A DNA stretch of 64,000 nt from Alphaproteobacteria bacterium (GTDB lineage Bacteria > Pseudomonadota > Alphaproteobacteria > CAAHEQ01 > UBA3637): positions 90,155 to 154,154 of the forward strand of contig JAFPYS010000019.1 in assembly GCA_017412085.1 (NCBI GenBank), written 5' to 3'. Below the pieces are notes generated by a model that worked only from the letters and a program-made list of their open reading frames with translations, did no database searches and was not told where the DNA came from. Positions 30,822 to 57,565 of the stretch are shown in pieces. How positions within the stretch are numbered: position 1 is the stretch's first letter; every line of letters begins with the position of its first letter. The translations under genes were made by a program, and so were the position numbers.

Positions 30822-32222
30822 ATGCAACCAAAACAACACCCAGGTCATCCTGAACCGGTTTCAGGATCTTATCATAATAAAGAAATTCTGAAACGCGCTG
30901 TGCTTGTTCAGAATGACAGATGCACAGATTCTGGCCGCAGCATGGTGGAAATGCTGGGCATGTTGGCAATTATGGGATTGTTGGGCATTGCAGCGATTTA
31001 TGGCATCCAAATGGCCATGAACAAGACGAAAGCAAATCAAATTATAAAAGATGGACGTTTAGCACATACTTCGTTAATTACAGATCCTATGGCATCGGAG
31101 TCTCCATGGCAAGACGCTGGCTTTACCCCTCTTTCCGATAAAACAATTCAAAAATGTATAAATGCCAACCAGCAACCTCTTGTGAAAGTGCAAGATGTCC
31201 AACCTTCTGTCTGTAAAGAGTTATTACAATACACGGGAATGGGAGAAGTTAAATTTTATAATGCTGTTGCGGGAAACACCTGTTCGGCTAGCGCAAACGA
31301 ACTAACCACCTGTGGTGATCAAAACCAAGATATTGTCATTTTATTTGACGCCAATGGGATGTCTGACGAATCGGGAGACGATACTGGATGCCGAACCGCT
31401 GCCGACTGCGATAACGGGTGGTGTAATAACGGCGAATGTGTGCCCTGCCCGGATTATCAACAGCCCAACGAACAAGGCGATGGCTGTACCGCAAATTGTA
31501 AGCAAGAAACACAAGATCGTTGTGGGATTGGCGAAGGAGACGACGCCATTGATTGGTGTTGTGACAAAGAATTACAGTGTGGTTCAGAACCCGGCACTTG
31601 TTCCGATGGAACATGCAGTTGGGAATTTCATCAGTTCGCGCCCAAAGCGACATGTCAATGGACTTTTGAACAAAAAGCCCCTCATAGCGATTGCACGGTT
31701 ACCTTGACCTATAATGCCGGCGGCACAGAGGTCACGGATGTCACCACAACCGGTTGTGCAGATTCTGGTGAATATTGTTATGTGGCTTATACAGATGCTG
31801 ATTGCGATGCCACAAATCATGCGGTTCAAAATGGTTCCACCGGCACATTACATGGTGTGTGCAACGCCATGACAACGGTAAATACAACCTGTGTGCCAGA
31901 ACTTACTTACACATCGTCAGGTTGCGATACCGCCGGACAATATTGTTATTTGTACTACACAGACCAAGGGTGCAGCACCCCCGCCGGTAATAGTGCAACA
32001 ACGCTTTATGGTGTGTGCCAAGGCATGACAACGGTCAATACAACCTGCGTTCCAGAAATCACCATGGAAGAAAAAACTTATTGCCAATCTGGTGAATATT
32101 GTTATCTGAAATGGGCGACAAATACAGCTTGCACCGAGCTTACGAACGGCGCCAGCGATGTCCTGTATGGCACATGCATCGCCCAAAACGCCGCCTCAGG
32201 CAGCTGCCCGTATAATCATTAA
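30822..32222 (+). CDS. type IV pilin-like (prepilin N-terminal cleavage/methylation motif) secreted protein with three Cys-rich tandem repeats
   Basis: G|RSMVEMLGMLAIMGLLGIAAIYG follows the class III signal pattern (Gly-1, Glu+5, hydrophobic helix). The C-terminal half has three ~55-aa repeats ending in MTTVNTTCVPE and containing GEYCY...LYGVC. Confidence 0.65.
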   Translation: MQPKQHPGHPEPVSGSYHNKEILKRAVLVQNDRCTDSGRSMVEMLGMLAIMGLLGIAAIYGIQMAMNKTKANQIIKDGRLAHTSLITDPMASESPWQDAGFTPLSDKTIQKCINANQQPLVKVQDVQPSVCKELLQYTGMGEVKFYNAVAGNTCSASANELTTCGDQNQDIVILFDANGMSDESGDDTGCRTAADCDNGWCNNGECVPCPDYQQPNEQGDGCTANCKQETQDRCGIGEGDDAIDWCCDKELQCGSEPGTCSDGTCSWEFHQFAPKATCQWTFEQKAPHSDCTVTLTYNAGGTEVTDVTTTGCADSGEYCYVAYTDADCDATNHAVQNGSTGTLHGVCNAMTTVNTTCVPELTYTSSGCDTAGQYCYLYYTDQGCSTPAGNSATTLYGVCQGMTTVNTTCVPEITMEEKTYCQSGEYCYLKWATNTACTELTNGASDVLYGTCIAQNAASGSCPYNH

Positions 32223-32228
32223 GTTAAT

Positions 32229-32657
32229 TTAGTCATGGTTATCAACGCAAATCGCTCTTGCTGTGGCGCTTCGATTTGACCACCAAATACTACAACCAAG
32301 ATCACATCTTCCACCAACTTGAAGTGCCTGAGTGCCATTTTCATTTGCATCCGCCAACCAAATACCCGTAATAGCAGAATAACTGCTGATATTACCACAA
32401 CGAGCTGAATTATTAACAAATGACATACTTCCGCCAGTGCATACGTCTTCATATCTTGCTAAACGCATACCATTGGCGTTACACCATGCAAAAGCGCTCC
32501 ACCAATTCATAAATGAAGCTGAAGATGCAGATGACATACATAAACGTTGTGTTGTATTTACTTTTCCCATATATTCCGTTCCACCGGTACATGTGGCGTG
32601 GGCAAGCGAAGAACAAAGCAAACAAGCCCCCGCAAACAACAATACAGATTTTTTCAT
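32229..32657 (-). CDS. small secreted C-type-lectin-like (CTLD-like) protein, paralog A
   Basis: Signal peptide MKKSVLLFAGACLLCSSLAHA, then ATCTGGTEY, then MNWWSAFAWCNANGMRLA (WxxAxxxCxxxGxxLA of the CTLD) and 6-8 Cys. AGGAGGG RBS. Confidence 0.65.
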   Translation of the reverse strand: MKKSVLLFAGACLLCSSLAHATCTGGTEYMGKVNTTQRLCMSSASSASFMNWWSAFAWCNANGMRLARYEDVCTGGSMSFVNNSARCGNISSYSAITGIWLADANENGTQALQVGGRCDLGCSIWWSNRSATARAICVDNHD

Positions 32658-32702
32658 GAAATCCCTCCTTTTGCGTTGTTTTGACGAAAGAAAAACATGC
32701 AC

Positions 32703-32720
32703 TTTAAACGACCGTTTAAA
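32703..32720. promoter_or_regulatory. 18-bp perfect palindrome TTTAAACGACCGTTTAAA (candidate operator), copy 1
   Basis: Inverted repeat TTTAAACG-AC-CGTTTAAA about 48 nt upstream of the ATG of paralog A. The same element recurs at 33170 and, degenerate, at 33281. Confidence 0.45.
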
Positions 32721-32743
32721 ATGCATGGGGAAAAATGAAAAAA

Positions 32744-33130
32744 TTATTGACTATTTGGAGCGCAAAGAGCTTTTGAGCCTGTCCACACACGATCGGCAGT
32801 TTTGTAGTATGTGTAACTACCGTTTACCTCAATATATGCACGTAACGTTGTTCCAACGGGATCTGCTAAACCTGCAGGATAAGCTGCATTGGCCAATCTG
32901 TGGTAACAATTCAAACTTTCATCGGACTTCATACGACACATTTCCATCCAAGTTGCTAAATGCATACCATTGGCGTTACACCAAGCATGGGCGGACCAGT
33001 AATTCATTGTCTTATTAGATACACAAAATTTTACATTGTTGTTTGTGTACTCAGTTCCGCCTTCACAAGTTGCATGTATTGGGCTTGAAAAGATTAAAAG
33101 CAAGGACATCAGAATAGAAATTTTTTTCAT
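32744..33130 (-). CDS. small secreted C-type-lectin-like protein, paralog B
   Basis: Signal peptide MKKISILMSLLLIFSSPIHA, then TCEGGTEY, then MNYWSAHAWCNANGMHLA. The C-terminal VWTGS...ALCAPNSQ resembles the CTLD WIGL...C end. AGGAG RBS. Confidence 0.65.
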   Translation of the reverse strand: MKKISILMSLLLIFSSPIHATCEGGTEYTNNNVKFCVSNKTMNYWSAHAWCNANGMHLATWMEMCRMKSDESLNCYHRLANAAYPAGLADPVGTTLRAYIEVNGSYTYYKTADRVWTGSKALCAPNSQ

Positions 33131-33169
33131 TTAAAACTCCTTAGATAAGCATTGATTTTAGGCATTTAC

Positions 33170-33187
33170 TTTAAACGACCGTTTAAA
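33170..33187. promoter_or_regulatory. 18-bp palindrome TTTAAACGACCGTTTAAA, copy 2 (upstream of paralog B)
   Basis: An identical 18-mer lies within a 45-nt block (ACTTTAAACGACCGTTTAAAATGCATGGGGAAAAATGAAAAAA) that is duplicated at 32701-32745. Confidence 0.45.
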
Positions 33188-33338
33188 ATGCATGGGGAAA
33201 AATGAAAAAAATAAAAAAACAGATACTTTTTTTATTGACTTACCTGTTTTTTTATTGTATCAAAGTATTAGGCGACAAAAACGGTCGTTTAAAGTGCATG
33301 TTTTTCTTGCGTCAAAACAACGCAAAAGGAGGGATTTC

Positions 33339-33773
33339 ATGAAAAAATTATTTGTCTTAATTGGACTTACTCTTGCGATGTCATCAACTTCCGCCTATGC
33401 AGGCTGTACTGGTGGAACAACGTTTAACACCACCATAAATTCATTAACCCTTTGCAAATCAACCGCTTCTATGAACTGGTGGAGTGCTTTCGCATGGTGT
33501 AAAGCAAACGGCATGCATCTTGCCACTTTTCAAGATGCTTTTGGCGATGCAACTTTAGCCTACAATAGCAATTGTACACTTAGCATAAATAGCAATATGT
33601 ACAACATGTCTGGCATCAATGGATACCCATGGTTGGCCTTGCCCGGAGATGATAATAGCGGAGAAACGGCTTTTGCGGTTTGCGGAGTGTCAACCGGTGG
33701 TTGGCATCGGGTAAACAAATACTCAAGAACTACAGCCAGGCCTGCTCTTTGTGCGCCGAACACAAATAATTAA
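33339..33773 (+). CDS. small secreted C-type-lectin-like protein, paralog C
   Basis: Signal peptide MKKLFVLIGLTLAMSSTSAYA, then GCTGGTTF, then MNWWSAFAWCKANGMHLA. WLALPGDDNSGETAFAVCG...ALCAPN resembles the CTLD WIGL.D...EDCV...C end. Its 5' leader (33281-33338) is about 95% identical to the paralog A leader. Confidence 0.65.
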   Translation: MKKLFVLIGLTLAMSSTSAYAGCTGGTTFNTTINSLTLCKSTASMNWWSAFAWCKANGMHLATFQDAFGDATLAYNSNCTLSINSNMYNMSGINGYPWLALPGDDNSGETAFAVCGVSTGGWHRVNKYSRTTARPALCAPNTNN

Positions 33774-33809
33774 CATGACATTTCAAAAAAATTATGCTAT
33801 AATAGGGGC

Positions 33810-34790: not shown

Positions 34791-34865
34791 ATCTTTTTCA
34801 TTTTTTTGTTGACAATACTATTTTATTAAGTTAAACTAATGGTTGCAATAAACAAGGAGGACTTT

Positions 34866-35348
34866 ATGAGAAAAAAATCCGTTAATGGCACCGTTCGTGG
34901 ACGCTTATCTGATGGCACCCCAAATCCAATTGATTTATACGTTGGCTCGCGCGTGCGTATGCGCCGTACTTTGCTGGGCATGAGCCAAGAAAGGTTGGCT
35001 GCCGAGCTTGGGATTACCTTTCAGCAAGTACAAAAATACGAACGCGGATCAAATCGTATTGGCGCCAGTCGTTTGTGGGACCTAGCACAAGTTTTAGGTG
35101 TTAATGTGGATTTCTTTTATCAGGATATCGACACGCAAACCGTTGACCAAAGTCCCCGCAAAATCTATGCACATCCTGAATTATCAGAAGAAATTTCCGA
35201 ATTTGACATGGATACTTTGTTGCGACGAGATGTGGCAACTCTTTTGCGTGCTTATACAAAAATTAAAGACCCCAAAATTCAGCACAATATTTTAGATGTC
35301 ATTATAGCTTTAGCCAGCACACAAGCAACAGAGGCTGAAAAAAATTAA
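34866..35348 (+). CDS. XRE-family helix-turn-helix transcriptional regulator
   Basis: HTH LLGMSQERLAAELGITFQQVQKYERGSNRIGASRL. AGGAGG RBS before MRKKS. Convergent with sufT, with overlapping stops. Confidence 0.7.
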   Translation: MRKKSVNGTVRGRLSDGTPNPIDLYVGSRVRMRRTLLGMSQERLAAELGITFQQVQKYERGSNRIGASRLWDLAQVLGVNVDFFYQDIDTQTVDQSPRKIYAHPELSEEISEFDMDTLLRRDVATLLRAYTKIKDPKIQHNILDVIIALASTQATEAEKN

Positions 35349-43971: not shown

Positions 43972-43989
43972 TTGGAAAGGGAAAAGGCA

Positions 43990-44223
43990 ATGAAACCATA
44001 CAACAAAAATAATTATGCACTGGAAAATGGCCTTTTCTTGTCACCTCGACAGGTTGCTGTCTTGGAACAACTGGCACTTGGTCTCAGTAACAAACAAATT
44101 GCTCATGAACTTGGCATTGCAGAACCCACCATCAAAATGCATGTCAGCGCTCTACTTCGCGCGCTTGGCGTTCAAAATCGTGTACAAATACTCATAAAAG
44201 CGAAACAACTGGGCTTTATTTAA
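43990..44223 (+). CDS. LuxR/GerE-type HTH DNA-binding protein (stand-alone HTH domain)
   Basis: LSPRQVAVLEQLALGLSNKQIAHELGIAEPTIKMHVSALLRALGVQNRVQ is a canonical LuxR C-terminal HTH. Confidence 0.65.
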   Translation: MKPYNKNNYALENGLFLSPRQVAVLEQLALGLSNKQIAHELGIAEPTIKMHVSALLRALGVQNRVQILIKAKQLGFI

Positions 44224-57052: not shown

Positions 57053-57565
57053 TTAATATTTTATACCTATACATAAAACATCTGGCACTTCATCCGTACA
57101 ATCCGTCTTGCTTTTCTTGCATTTTCCACCTGAATATTCGTATATACCTACAACTTCACCCTTAGCATAATGCTTTTTCTCCTCTTGCACACGCTTCATT
57201 AAAGCCTTGCACACTGACGCATCCAAAGCCTTTCCACCATTAACATTTCCCACAGGAACAGCAACATAACCAAGCGCCGCCTCACGCTTGACACCGGTAT
57301 TGTTATCGCCCACACCGTAGCCATAAGACGTTATAGCAGAAGCTCCACCAGCCTGTTTATCAAAAACACCATAAGTCAATTTACTAGACTTCTTTTCTGC
57401 AACCAATGCACGTTTACGTACCTCATCCAACAAATTGTTTAATCGCACTTGAGATGTCGCATCTCCAAAAAAGGCCATACCACCAACGGTCAAAAGTCCT
57501 ATGAGCGCCAAAACACCAAGCATTTCCAATAGCGTACGCCCACTATTTTTTTCCATTCGTTGCAT
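57053..57565 (-). CDS. type IV pilin-like protein (prepilin-type N-terminal cleavage/methylation domain)
   Basis: MQRMEKNSG|RTLLEMLGVLALIGLLTVGGMAFF, with Gly-1, Arg+1, Glu+5 and a hydrophobic helix. The C-terminal pair of Cys (C...C) is typical of a pilin disulfide loop. Confidence 0.6.
   Translation of the reverse strand: MQRMEKNSGRTLLEMLGVLALIGLLTVGGMAFFGDATSQVRLNNLLDEVRKRALVAEKKSSKLTYGVFDKQAGGASAITSYGYGVGDNNTGVKREAALGYVAVPVGNVNGGKALDASVCKALMKRVQEEKKHYAKGEVVGIYEYSGGKCKKSKTDCTDEVPDVLCIGIKY

Follow-up and report, generated by a model that had tools for sequence, protein, structure and literature searches.

The window, meaning the whole 64,000-nt stretch of DNA that was analyzed, contains three small genes, A, B, and C, next to the gene of a cysteine-rich protein with a pilin-like N terminus (Table 1). 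Further neighbors of the locus encode a tRNA U5-methyltransferase, an XRE regulator, and SufS together with an FeS-assembly protein. The host is an uncultured ruminant-gut alphaproteobacterium. All three small products carry a signal peptide, show pairwise identities of just 38 to 39%, and have zero matches to Pfam or NCBIfam families. Structure modeling suggests that they are C-type-lectin-like: the AlphaFold model of the C product has a mean pLDDT of 78, and its best 50 fold matches in the PDB are all CTLD or Link domains, with weak scores (E of ∼1e-2 and TM of 0.35 to 0.48). In relatives, a single lectin-like gene is found 14 to 20 nt 3' of the gene for the homologue of the Cys-rich protein, on the same strand.

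Table 1. Features of the lectin-like gene locus and regulator genes of the window (positions of the window)
Feature	Positions	Strand	Remarks
Cysteine-rich protein gene	30822..32222	+	466 aa, pilin-like N terminus; no Pfam/NCBIfam family
Gene A	32229..32657	-	Secreted, predicted C-type-lectin-like, 142 aa (NCBI II938_04260)
Type 1 leader of A	32658..32695	-	With RBS (GGAGG) and U-rich stretch predicted to pair with the RBS
Site A	32696..32727		CATGCACTTTAAACG-AC-CGTTTAAAATGCATG, core 32711-32712
Block beyond site A	32721..32743		ATGCATGGGGAAAAATGAAAAAA; directly adjoins the gene B stop codon
Gene B	32744..33130	-	Secreted, predicted C-type-lectin-like, 128 aa
Type 2 leader of B	33131..33162	-	No relation to the leaders of A and C beyond the site
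Site B	33163..33194		CATTTACTTTAAACG-AC-CGTTTAAAATGCATG, core 33178-33179
AT-rich spacer between the B and C cores	33180..33283		Candidate invertible segment
Site C	33269..33300		TAGGCGACAAAAACG-GT-CGTTTAAAGTGCATG, core 33284-33285; inverted relative to A and B
Type 1 leader of C	33301..33338	+	99% identical to the A leader
Gene C	33339..33773	+	Secreted, predicted C-type-lectin-like, 144 aa (II938_04270)
70-nt inverted repeat, left arm	32648..32717		69/70 identical (99%)
70-nt inverted repeat, right arm	33279-33348		
XRE gene (HTH_3)	34839-35348		
Small LuxR/GerE gene	43972-44223		∼10.7 kb from the locus

Directly upstream of each of the three lectin-like genes lies a two-armed element of 26 to 32 bp. 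Its arms of 12 to 15 bp have the form nCAY-WWW-AAACG and surround an asymmetric 2-bp center, so that the site in a 12-2-12 reading is GCACTTTAAACG-AC-CGTTTAAAATGC. The core dinucleotide is AC at sites A and B and GT, the reverse complement, at site C, which gives site C the opposite direction. At site A, the symmetry reaches 15+2+15 (32696-32727) with 93% complementarity. The spacer-side arm of site C is of an "A-tract" type, as can be found in the sites of Treponema and of a mouse-gut alphaproteobacterium described below. The sequence-only reading had reported a perfect 18-bp palindrome in two identical copies. The 18-mer TTTAAACGACCGTTTAAA is indeed present at exactly 32703-32720 and 33170-33187, with no other copy in the 64 kb, but its reverse complement is TTTAAACGGTCGTTTAAA, and the structure is one of 8-bp arms around an asymmetric AC (8+2+8). 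The third, degenerate copy lies at 33276-33293 instead of 33281-33298 and carries 3 mismatches, all of them in the arm distal to gene C. The distance between the palindrome and the ATG, proposed to be a constant 46 to 48 nt, measures 45 nt (A), 39 nt (B), and 45 nt (C).

The core AAACGNNCGTTT has exactly three copies in the 64 kb, all of them at the lectin locus. When the pattern is loosened to tolerate as many as 3 mismatches, finding three copies in the window is not significant (this number is reached in 12 of 100 shuffles), and the three copies are paralogous and hence not independent evidence. The signal is the extreme conservation of noncoding DNA compared with the 38 to 39% identity of the proteins. 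Several known motif classes were rejected by inspection of the sequence: a CtrA site (TTAA-N7-TTAA), for which the spacing here is N8; a LacI/PurR-type operator with its single central CG; and dif/Xer, parS, and integron attC sites. A REP/BIME element was likewise rejected, with only three copies in 64 kb.

The regions around the sites are organized as a mosaic. Gene A is preceded by leader 1, the site, and the block, gene B by leader 2, the site, and the block, and gene C by leader 1, the site, and the spacer with the promoter-like elements. All three genes have the 22-nt site, and only A and C have the entire 45-nt leader in common. The near-identical inverted copies of the A and C leaders, which had been described as ∼95% identical over ∼75 nt, show 69 identities in 70 nt (99%) and enclose a unique 561-nt segment (32718-33278). 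Sites A and B lie in a stretch that is identical as claimed, over 43 nt and not 45 nt (32701-32743 and 33168-33210), and the block beside site A is identical to that beside site B (33188-33210). Sites B and C are the arms of a 22-nt inverted repeat (20/22) that encloses 94 nt, and the spacer contains a further internal inverted repeat of 16 nt (33210-33225 and 33241-33256). The A/C identity (69/70) ends inside the site, 5 nt beyond the core; the A/B identity (43/43) begins in the gene-side arm and extends 23 nt past the palindrome. The identity tracts change partner exactly at the site, and the modules are shuffled there. Since the proteins are only 38 to 39% identical, the identity of the noncoding DNA is not a matter of simple shared ancestry.

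When 185,579 species genomes, a collection that excludes the source MAG, were scanned with GCAYTTTAAACGRYCGTTT, 27 loci were obtained. Seventeen of these are scattered and contain a single site each. A second, inverted site is present at both of the two mouse-gut Alphaproteobacteria loci and at six of the eight Treponema loci. At locus L057 of a mouse-gut alphaproteobacterium, the site pair surrounds ∼105 AT-rich nt, and the gene-side site is located ∼55 nt upstream of the gene of a 1,244-aa autotransporter adhesin. The order of the elements at this locus is that of site C: A-tract arm, core, CGTTTAAAATGC, leader, and ATG. In rumen and gut Treponema, both sites are 95 to 100% conserved over 34 to 41 nt, and the DNA between them carries unrelated toxin-antitoxin or ATPase cargo. 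No regulator gene adjoins the sites at L046 or L057. Both mouse-gut MAGs show one common orientation and no inverted junction. When the mouse-gut locus was traced through its nth and fabG neighbors, related species were found without the proposed switch, and the contigs of the nearest strain ended in a terminator hairpin. Searching JGI metagenomes for the site pattern yielded 4 unrelated chance matches, and viral scans gave 0 matches and 1 uninformative match.

In the syntenic relative L023, the Cys-rich-protein gene is followed after 20 nt by a single ortholog of gene C, and the site, gene A, and gene B are all absent. Gene C shows ∼90% nucleotide identity with this ortholog from about codon 33 onwards, whereas its 5' end, comprising the leader and the signal peptide, is far more diverged than the remaining gene. 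The cyclic contig L026 has a length of 552 nt and a period of 497, equal to the spacing of repeat D1, and contains a hybrid gene with the N terminus of A and the C terminus of B. Homologous exchange between the lectin paralogs probably occurs in nature. The hybrid gene, the restriction of the module to one lineage, and the diverged 5' end of C, which fits a replacement, would all be compatible with a functionless by-product of a tandem and inverted duplication of lectin genes, followed by gene conversion or template switching at the palindrome, with the coding parts diverging under diversifying selection. This origin is nevertheless unlikely. One-off events leave unexplained the recurring inverted pairs with the same arm types and order in unrelated genomes, and they do not account for the ending of both identity tracts exactly in the site. 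The coexistence of 99 to 100% noncoding identity with 38% protein identity requires ongoing homogenization or selection.

The orientation of the locus in other assemblies was looked up with the exact proteins of genes A, B, and C, the methyltransferase, and the close homologues P0003, P0004, and P0005. Few contigs were recovered in this way, and the syntenic relative L023 without the module was among them. The two resolved assembly contigs from other samples, L001 and L006, both have the orientation of the window and contain no inverted junction. Contig L027 from another sample consists of exactly the 561-nt segment between the arms of the 70-nt repeat. L027, L002, and L004 stop at this repeat, and the orientation is not readable in them. 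These contig breaks at the site are attributed to the 70-nt repeat with a k of 55 and are hence not counted as evidence of inversion.

At the locus, good promoter-like elements are limited to the B-C spacer, where two of them overlap and point in opposite directions. The best-scoring one (rank 89 of 128k) is an extended -10 element on the minus strand, directed towards B (TG-A-TACAAT, 33262 to 33254). The plus-strand element towards C (TTGACT-17-TATCAA, 33235-33263) has rank 746 and lacks the -7 T. A stock promoter scanner calls neither of them. A model with one C-pointing promoter serving all three genes was dropped after rescoring gave the better extended -10 element on the opposite strand. 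Promoter scans of the locus found no sigma-70-like promoter overlapping the palindrome and no promoter-like element upstream of gene A. Transcription from the best promoter-like elements, with predicted starts at ∼33270 on the plus strand and ∼33247 on the minus strand, would place the site in the 5' untranslated region (UTR), at about +15 for C and about +69 for B.

Site A folds on the minus strand into a hairpin of 14 bp, at -16.8 kcal/mol (z = -7.8), with TTTTTCTTTC behind it, and a terminator scan flags the site as a hairpin with the U-run UUUUUCUUUC, starting 17 nt past the stop codon of gene B. This structure resembles a terminator that separates gene B from gene A. The hairpin of site B is weak, with a z of 0 when the 85-nt region upstream of B is folded, and has no U-run; site C is unable to form the hairpin, and neither of these two sites qualifies as a terminator. 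The leaders of A and C fold with their U-rich stretch paired to the GGAGG of the RBS. An inversion performed in silico gives each block-joined A or C leader the hairpin of -16.8 kcal/mol with its U-run and removes the hairpin from each spacer-joined leader. The element could accordingly be imagined to act at the RNA level only, as a terminator or attenuator between B and A or as a 5' UTR structure that tunes stability or translation, for example, by masking the RBS. The stable hairpin and UUUUUCUUUC at site A and the pairing of the U-rich stretch with GGAGG in the two leaders speak for such a role, as does the fact that the sites are transcribed if the predicted promoters are used. A purely RNA-based function is still very unlikely: the B hairpin is no better than that of shuffled sequences and C has none, which means that the sequence and not the structure is conserved. 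An Rfam search of the element gave zero family matches, and the inverted pairs of sites that flank cargo in other taxa are left unexplained.

A protein-binding function of a conventional kind was at the center of the sequence-only reading, which saw an operator for XRE or LuxR-type regulators encoded nearby. In a more general form, a dimeric HTH regulator, or two such dimers (TetR/PsrA-like, XRE, or LuxR type), would coregulate the three paralogs, with sites A and B as strong operators and site C as one of half strength. Part of this proposal holds up, as the motif-like element at a near-fixed distance from the genes is plausible as a protein-recognition site. The palindromic element is found at a similar distance (39 to 45 nt) from each ATG and agrees with 18 of the 20 specified positions of the Shewanella motif 6, AAtTtAAACgNNcGTTTaAaTT. 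A pair of sites around a promoter region, the arrangement seen here and at L057, is common among repressors, the XRE and LuxR-type genes are present in the window as claimed, and no evidence of inversion was found in the assemblies compared. The specific assignment to XRE or LuxR regulators, however, is unsupported: the XRE gene occupies the same position in a relative (L023 to L025) that contains a single lectin gene and no palindrome, and the LuxR-type gene is ∼10.7 kb distant. No TetR gene is seen in the window either, no promoter overlaps the site, and gene A is without any promoter-like element. An operator also explains neither the 99 to 100% identity of the 45-nt leader and the 23-nt block beside 38% protein identity, nor the exchange of modules at the site, nor the conserved Treponema site pairs around unrelated cargo. 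Taken as a whole, an operator function is doubtful.

The mosaic, the asymmetric inverted core, and the inverted pairs in other gut bacteria fit a recombination site better than an operator. The element may be the crossover site of an inverton- or shufflon-like site-specific recombination switch, a reading to which a probability of roughly 40% is assigned. Recombination between sites B and C would invert the ∼100-bp AT-rich spacer with its promoter-like elements and join B to the C end of the spacer, with the predicted junction CATTTACTTTAAACGACCGTTTTTGTCGCCTAATAC. Recombination between A and C would invert a 0.57-kb segment containing gene B and the spacer. Either inversion would change which lectin-like gene meets which promoter end, and the outcome would be phase or antigenic variation among the three secreted lectin-like proteins. 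A gene joined to the block would gain two matching arms, and the resulting 14-bp RNA hairpin with its U-run could halt read-through; gene A is at present in this block-joined, hairpin-bearing state. We infer the inversion itself, the promoter used, and the insulating role of the hairpin. B and C could be divergently transcribed without any inversion, and a segment of 94 bp is close to the lower size limit for inversion.

The recombinase for such a switch would belong to the serine or tyrosine family and would be encoded elsewhere in the genome. No gene of either family is visible in the 64-kb window. The Y-x-R-x-S...Q motif is absent from all open reading frames of the window and of the loci L028 to L058, and none of the window's open reading frames tested against Pfam gives a recombinase. 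No recombinase is visible in ten 8-kb loci of other taxa, where the systematic screen was one for the serine-recombinase motif.

In a wider proposal, which is put forward tentatively and seems improbable as a whole, the site family nCAY-WWW-AAACG-NN-CGTTT-WWW-RTGn would belong to an uncharacterized trans-acting recombination system of gut and rumen Alphaproteobacteria and Treponema. In Alphaproteobacteria, this system would flip promoter segments of ∼100 bp in front of adhesin or lectin genes. The site would double as the arm of a terminator hairpin, and inversion would give the promoter to one gene and an insulator to its paralogs. The Treponema sites would enclose interchangeable toxin-antitoxin or defense cassettes next to a restriction-modification locus.

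If the inversion is real, this uncultured alphaproteobacterium of the ruminant gut varies its choice among three secreted lectin-like proteins. In relatives, the single lectin-like gene is cotranscribed with the gene of the pilin-like Cys-rich surface protein, and for this reason, the three proteins could, in the case of inversion, be alternative binding specificities for host or dietary glycans. The locus would then represent a compact three-gene switch and a new family of recombination sites in a lineage without genetics, and its sequence pattern could be used to find similar switches in metagenomes. Should the operator reading be correct, the locus amounts to an ordinary regulatory module that was duplicated.

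Among known systems, the palindrome of the Shewanella motif 6 is nearly identical to the element but belongs to a gammaproteobacterial regulon linked to lipid catabolism. We take this motif to be of the type bound by PsrA of the TetR family (AAAC-N2-4-GTTT). In contrast to an operator of the PsrA type, the element described here has lectin-like secreted targets, no TetR gene nearby, and a position off the promoter.

The gix sites of phage Mu, read from AF083977 as TTATCCAAAACC-TC-GGTTTACAGGAA and TTCCTGTAAACC-GA-GGTTTTGGATAA, share with the lectin sites the 12-2-12 organization, the asymmetric core inverted between partners, and the mixture of A-tract and T-containing arms. The arms of gix and hix likewise end in AAAC(C/G) beside the core, and the substrate of Hin consists of two 26-bp hix sites. 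The base adjacent to the core is G/C swapped between gix (AAACC-NN-GGTTT) and the lectin site (AAACG-NN-CGTTT), and the outer arm bases differ. Neither an invertase gene nor an enhancer has been identified at the lectin locus, in contrast to the gix and hix systems. A 9-8-9 layout of the tyrosine-recombinase type is equally possible for the site.

The vpma/Xer1 system of Mycoplasma agalactiae, the vsp system of M. bovis, and the vsa system of M. pulmonis also comprise paralogs for secreted proteins in both orientations, with a site in the conserved 5' UTR, and their inversions reassign a promoter among genes. In vpma, the promoter is unique, and every paralog carries recombination sites in its conserved 5' UTR (-1 to -72). 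Terminator structures lie inside these loci, as they do at the lectin locus. The vpma locus differs through its adjoining tyrosine recombinase gene and its unique promoter, compared to two promoter-like elements and no adjacent recombinase at the lectin locus, where the full leader is common to A and C only.

Invertons, such as the capsule promoters of Bacteroides fragilis with Mpi, hin/hix of Salmonella, and fimS of Escherichia coli, mostly span <300 nt. Compared to these, the lectin locus has three sites and as many target genes, one of which lies inside the larger candidate segment, and an unusually short spacer of 94 nt between the repeats; inversion is here a proposal. The B. fragilis recombinase can act on many loci from a gene at a distant position. 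Invertons and the lectin locus have in common short inverted repeats around a small AT-rich segment with a promoter or, at the lectin locus, promoter-like elements, placed in a gut bacterium beside genes whose products are secreted or located at the surface.

The two-armed element upstream of each of the three lectin-like genes A, B and C is read here as the recombination site of an inversion switch, an interpretation ranked first with a probability of about 0.4. It draws on the exchange of modules exactly at the site, an asymmetric core that is the same in every copy and inverted in C, a non-coding identity far exceeding the coding identity, inverted pairs that recur by an adhesin gene and flank variable cargo, and a gix-like layout. 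Against it stand a recombinase not found and a flipped copy not seen in the loci and contigs examined, ambiguous promoters and a very short spacer. The four readings weighed in this section are not fully exclusive.

The 18-mer TTTAAACGACCGTTTAAA, described in a sequence-only reading as a perfect palindrome, occurs at sites A and B exactly where that reading placed it, but is built of 8-bp arms around AC, a non-self-complementary dinucleotide. The symmetry of site A reaches 15+2+15 (CATGCACTTTAAACG-AC-CGTTTAAAATGCATG), and the extended form of site B is CATTTACTTTAAACG-AC-CGTTTAAAATGCATG. The third copy, CAAAAACG-GT-CGTTTAAA, does not lie at 33281-33298 as proposed; its core is inverted, and its three mismatches all fall in the arm distal to gene C. 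The earlier observation is real, with several details wrong: the identical block measures 43 nt instead of 45 nt, the A and C leaders are near-identical in opposite orientation as described but at 69 of 70 nt and not ~95% over ~75 nt, and the gap from palindrome to ATG is 45 (A), 39 (B) and 45 (C) nt instead of 46-48 nt. Toward each gene, the site always reads AAACG-GT-CGTTTAAAGT, so that A and B share one chromosomal direction and C has the opposite one. The B and C sites form a 22-nt inverted repeat (20/22) enclosing 94 nt; the one formed by A and C is 70 nt long and encloses 561 nt. No further copies of the core AAACGNNCGTTT, of the leader or of the block exist elsewhere in the 64-kb window.

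Coordinates of the lectin locus and of associated features in the window
Feature	Position	Strand	Remark
Helicase-like ORF (911 aa), then ORFs of 330 and 313 aa	17239-21938		
Cys-rich protein, pilin-like N-terminus	30822-32222	+	466 aa; left neighbour of the lectin-like genes
Lectin module	32223-33338		
Gene A	32229-32657	-	Upstream: leader 1, site, block
A/C 70-nt repeat	32648-32717, 33279-33348		
Shared A/C leader	32658-32690, 33306-33338		
Site A	32696-32727		18-mer at 32703-32720
Block	32701-32743, 33168-33210		
Gene B	32744-33130	-	Upstream: leader 2, site, block
Site B, 18-mer	33170-33187		
Spacer inverted repeat	33210-33256		
TTGACT-17-TATCAA	33235-33263	+	Toward C
TG-A-TACAAT	33262 to 33254	-	Toward B
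Site C	33276-33293		
Gene C	33339-33773	+	Upstream: leader 1, site, AT-rich spacer
ATGACA-17-TATAAT	33775-33803		Straight after gene C stop
Protein with pilin-like N-terminus	57053-57565		

The upstream DNA of the three genes is composed of pieces 99-100% identical that are differently combined per gene. The A/B and A/C identity tracts overlap in the site only, which, judged from these alignments, makes the site the junction at which upstream modules were exchanged. The encoded proteins share just 38-39% pairwise identity; all three start with MKK and a signal peptide and contain the motif NWWSAxAWCxANGMxLA, and no Pfam or NCBIfam family is recognised in them. An AlphaFold model of C (39 homologues, mean pLDDT 78) gives weak fold matches in the PDB (E ~1e-2, TM 0.35-0.48), of which the best 50 are all C-type-lectin-like or Link domains. 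This makes the label lectin-like a reasonable one, short of proof. The locus lies on a 177,944-bp contig of an NCBI MAG labelled Alphaproteobacteria bacterium (tags II938_04260 and II938_04270; window G+C 39.5%), derives from ruminant gastrointestinal metagenomes and is followed by a tRNA U5-methyltransferase gene. Pilin-like N-termini (GRSMVEMLG.., GRTLLEMLG..) without family assignment are found in two window proteins and in the related loci L008-L022. The helicase-like ORF and the two ORFs after it, which lack a Pfam family, may form a defence or mobile module.

Lectin-like homologues number 44, mostly from gut Alphaproteobacteria, and those inspected are encoded by a single gene on the same strand, 14-20 nt after a ~500-aa Cys-rich or EGF-like protein; the site is absent from these loci. 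The large Cys-rich pilin-like protein and the lectin-like gene form a conserved two-gene unit in relatives, and many assemblies break inside homologues of the large protein, a pattern suggestive of a repetitive or variable gene. Synteny is kept in the closest relative, L023 (big gene, 20 nt, C ortholog, methyltransferase, XRE gene, Suf genes), which is without gene A, gene B and the site, so that the whole lectin module is lineage-specific in this comparison. Its C ortholog shows ~90% nucleotide identity from about codon 33 on, with the leader and signal-peptide region far more diverged than the rest.

Contigs from other samples resolve the region as B-spacer-C (L001) and B-A (L006), both in the orientation of the window, and no assembled contig examined contains an inverted junction; a JGI metagenome scan returned chance matches only. 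L027 coincides exactly with the unique 561 nt enclosed by the 70-nt repeat arms, and L002 and L004 both begin with a shared 55-mer; since an assembler with k = 55 yields such ends at a 70-nt repeat, they are not counted as evidence of heterogeneity. At the start of L001 (ENA ERZ28654782 scaffold_180017, positions 1-300), the first ~50 nt of gene C (signal peptide) are joined to ~250 nt that are rich in G+C and bear no relation to the window; the scaffold is probably chimeric or, possibly, carries another gene on the same leader and signal peptide. The cyclic contig L026 (ENA ERZ28654120 scaffold_579963; 552 nt, made up of a 497-nt period, equal to the D1 direct-repeat spacing, and a 55-nt overlap, k = 55) corresponds to window 32229-33130 and encodes a hybrid lectin (P0003, 136 aa), in which the N-terminal part of A passes into the C-terminal part of B inside the conserved WCNANGM region, with block, site and leader 1 on either side. 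With an exact shared stretch of just 22 nt, the junction is probably present in the reads; if real, it would mean that A and B have undergone unequal crossing-over in a natural population. Such a recombinationally active locus could have produced the mosaic as a by-product of duplication and gene conversion, an unlikely explanation that leaves the recurrence across taxa unaccounted for.

A standard promoter scanner finds no promoter upstream of A, B or C. In a position-weight scan, the plus-strand TTGACT element scores 6.1 bits, versus 11.3 bits for the methyltransferase promoter. With an extended -10 allowed, the minus-strand element is the best of the locus (rank 89 of 128k positions) and the plus-strand element ranks 746; their -10 hexamers overlap, and the same scans give no promoter-like element upstream of A. 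A first model of one promoter directed toward C is consequently not established, and B and C could be no more than a divergently transcribed pair. The spacer also contains a 16-nt inverted repeat (AATAAAAAAACAGATA / TACCTGTTTTTTTATT, 94% complementary) around the TTGACT hexamer, which could be a bending-protein binding site or a weak bidirectional hairpin. The near-consensus sigma-70 promoter after gene C, preceded by TG, presumably drives the methyltransferase gene independently of lectin-locus transcription.

The sequence-only reading considered the palindrome consistent with the operator of a dimeric regulator, naming XRE and LuxR-type candidates. This is possible without being the best fit; it ranks second and is doubtful. 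Shewanella motif 6, which we take to be of the PsrA (TetR family) type, is the only match to the motif string in the literature. That motif, AAtTtAAACgNNcGTTTaAaTT, is linked in Shewanella to lipid catabolism. Of its 20 specified positions, 18 agree with the window palindrome, whose shape is thus shared with a real operator class. The position relative to the promoters and the conserved flanks do not fit an operator, nor does XRE synteny, as the XRE gene is kept in L023 where the palindrome is missing.

On the minus strand, site A forms a 14-bp hairpin (-16.8 kcal/mol, z = -7.8) that begins 17 nt past the B stop codon and is followed by UUUUUCUUUC, which gives it the appearance of a terminator; whichever reading holds, it probably ends transcription from B. 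A role as RNA hairpin or terminator only would build on this structure, which is not kept at the other sites: at site B the hairpin does not exceed shuffled sequence, and site C is unable to form one in folding. Rfam gives no match. This role is quite improbable. Simulated inversions follow a consistent rule: an A or C leader gains the hairpin with its U-run whenever it is joined to a block end, and any leader joined to the C end of the spacer loses it. In the shared A/C leader, predicted pairing of the U-rich UUUUUCUU with the ribosome-binding site AAGGAGGG resembles a fourU-type RNA thermometer or translational mask.

A scan of 185,579 species, one genome each, with GCAYTTTAAACGRYCGTTT gives 27 loci, the source MAG not being among the returned genomes. 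Scattered matches with one site apiece make up 17 of these, and two lineages stand out. Two mouse-gut Alphaproteobacteria MAGs contain paired sites 131 nt apart, ...CAAAAAAACG-AT-CGTTTTTTTG... and TGTAACAAAAAAACG-AT-CGTTTAAAATGCG, in the order found before gene C: AT-rich spacer, A-tract arm, core, CGTTTAAA(A/G)TGC arm, leader, GGGATT..ATG. This indicates that GCGACAAAAACG, the arm of site C on the spacer side, is a recurrent arm type and not decay. The two-site, ~105-nt AT-rich switch-like element lies between fabG and nth (L057 2588-6545, MGBC160833; L046 2800-3040, MGBC103387). A 1244-aa autotransporter with PMP repeats begins ~55 nt downstream of the second L057 site; L046 has kept the switch and the start of the leader, which run into a terminator, and lacks the adhesin gene. 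Eight rumen or gut Treponema genomes carry GCACTTTAAACG-GT-CGTTTTTGGTG, six of them with a second, inverted site 0.9-3.3 kb off (L041, L047, L048, L053, L058 and L049, the last being Treponema ruminis RU1, NZ_CP031518). Both sites are 95-100% conserved between species over 34-41 nt and enclose unrelated cargo: DUF3791+DUF3990 in one species, an AAA_14/DUF4143 ATPase with HipA (listed also as HipBA) in another and an unassigned gene pair in a third. The pairs adjoin C5-methylase and McrB-like genes, and the region looks like a cassette slot or an invertible segment of a defence locus. A serine-recombinase motif screen of these 8-kb loci of other taxa finds no recombinase gene.

Among known systems, the inversion-switch reading finds a matching layout in the gix sites of phage Mu (AF083977), TTATCCAAAACC-TC-GGTTTACAGGAA and TTCCTGTAAACC-GA-GGTTTTGGATAA. 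These show a 12-2-12 arrangement with an asymmetric core inverted between partners and one A-tract arm and one T-containing arm per site; the window sites share this layout, except that the base beside the core is G, not C. Hin acts on two 26-bp hix sites. The window sites may also be read as a 9-8-9 layout. Such a layout is typical of tyrosine recombinases. A functional precedent is the vpma locus of M. agalactiae, in which recombination sites in the conserved -1 to -72 leader of each paralog allow inversions to re-assign expression from a unique promoter.
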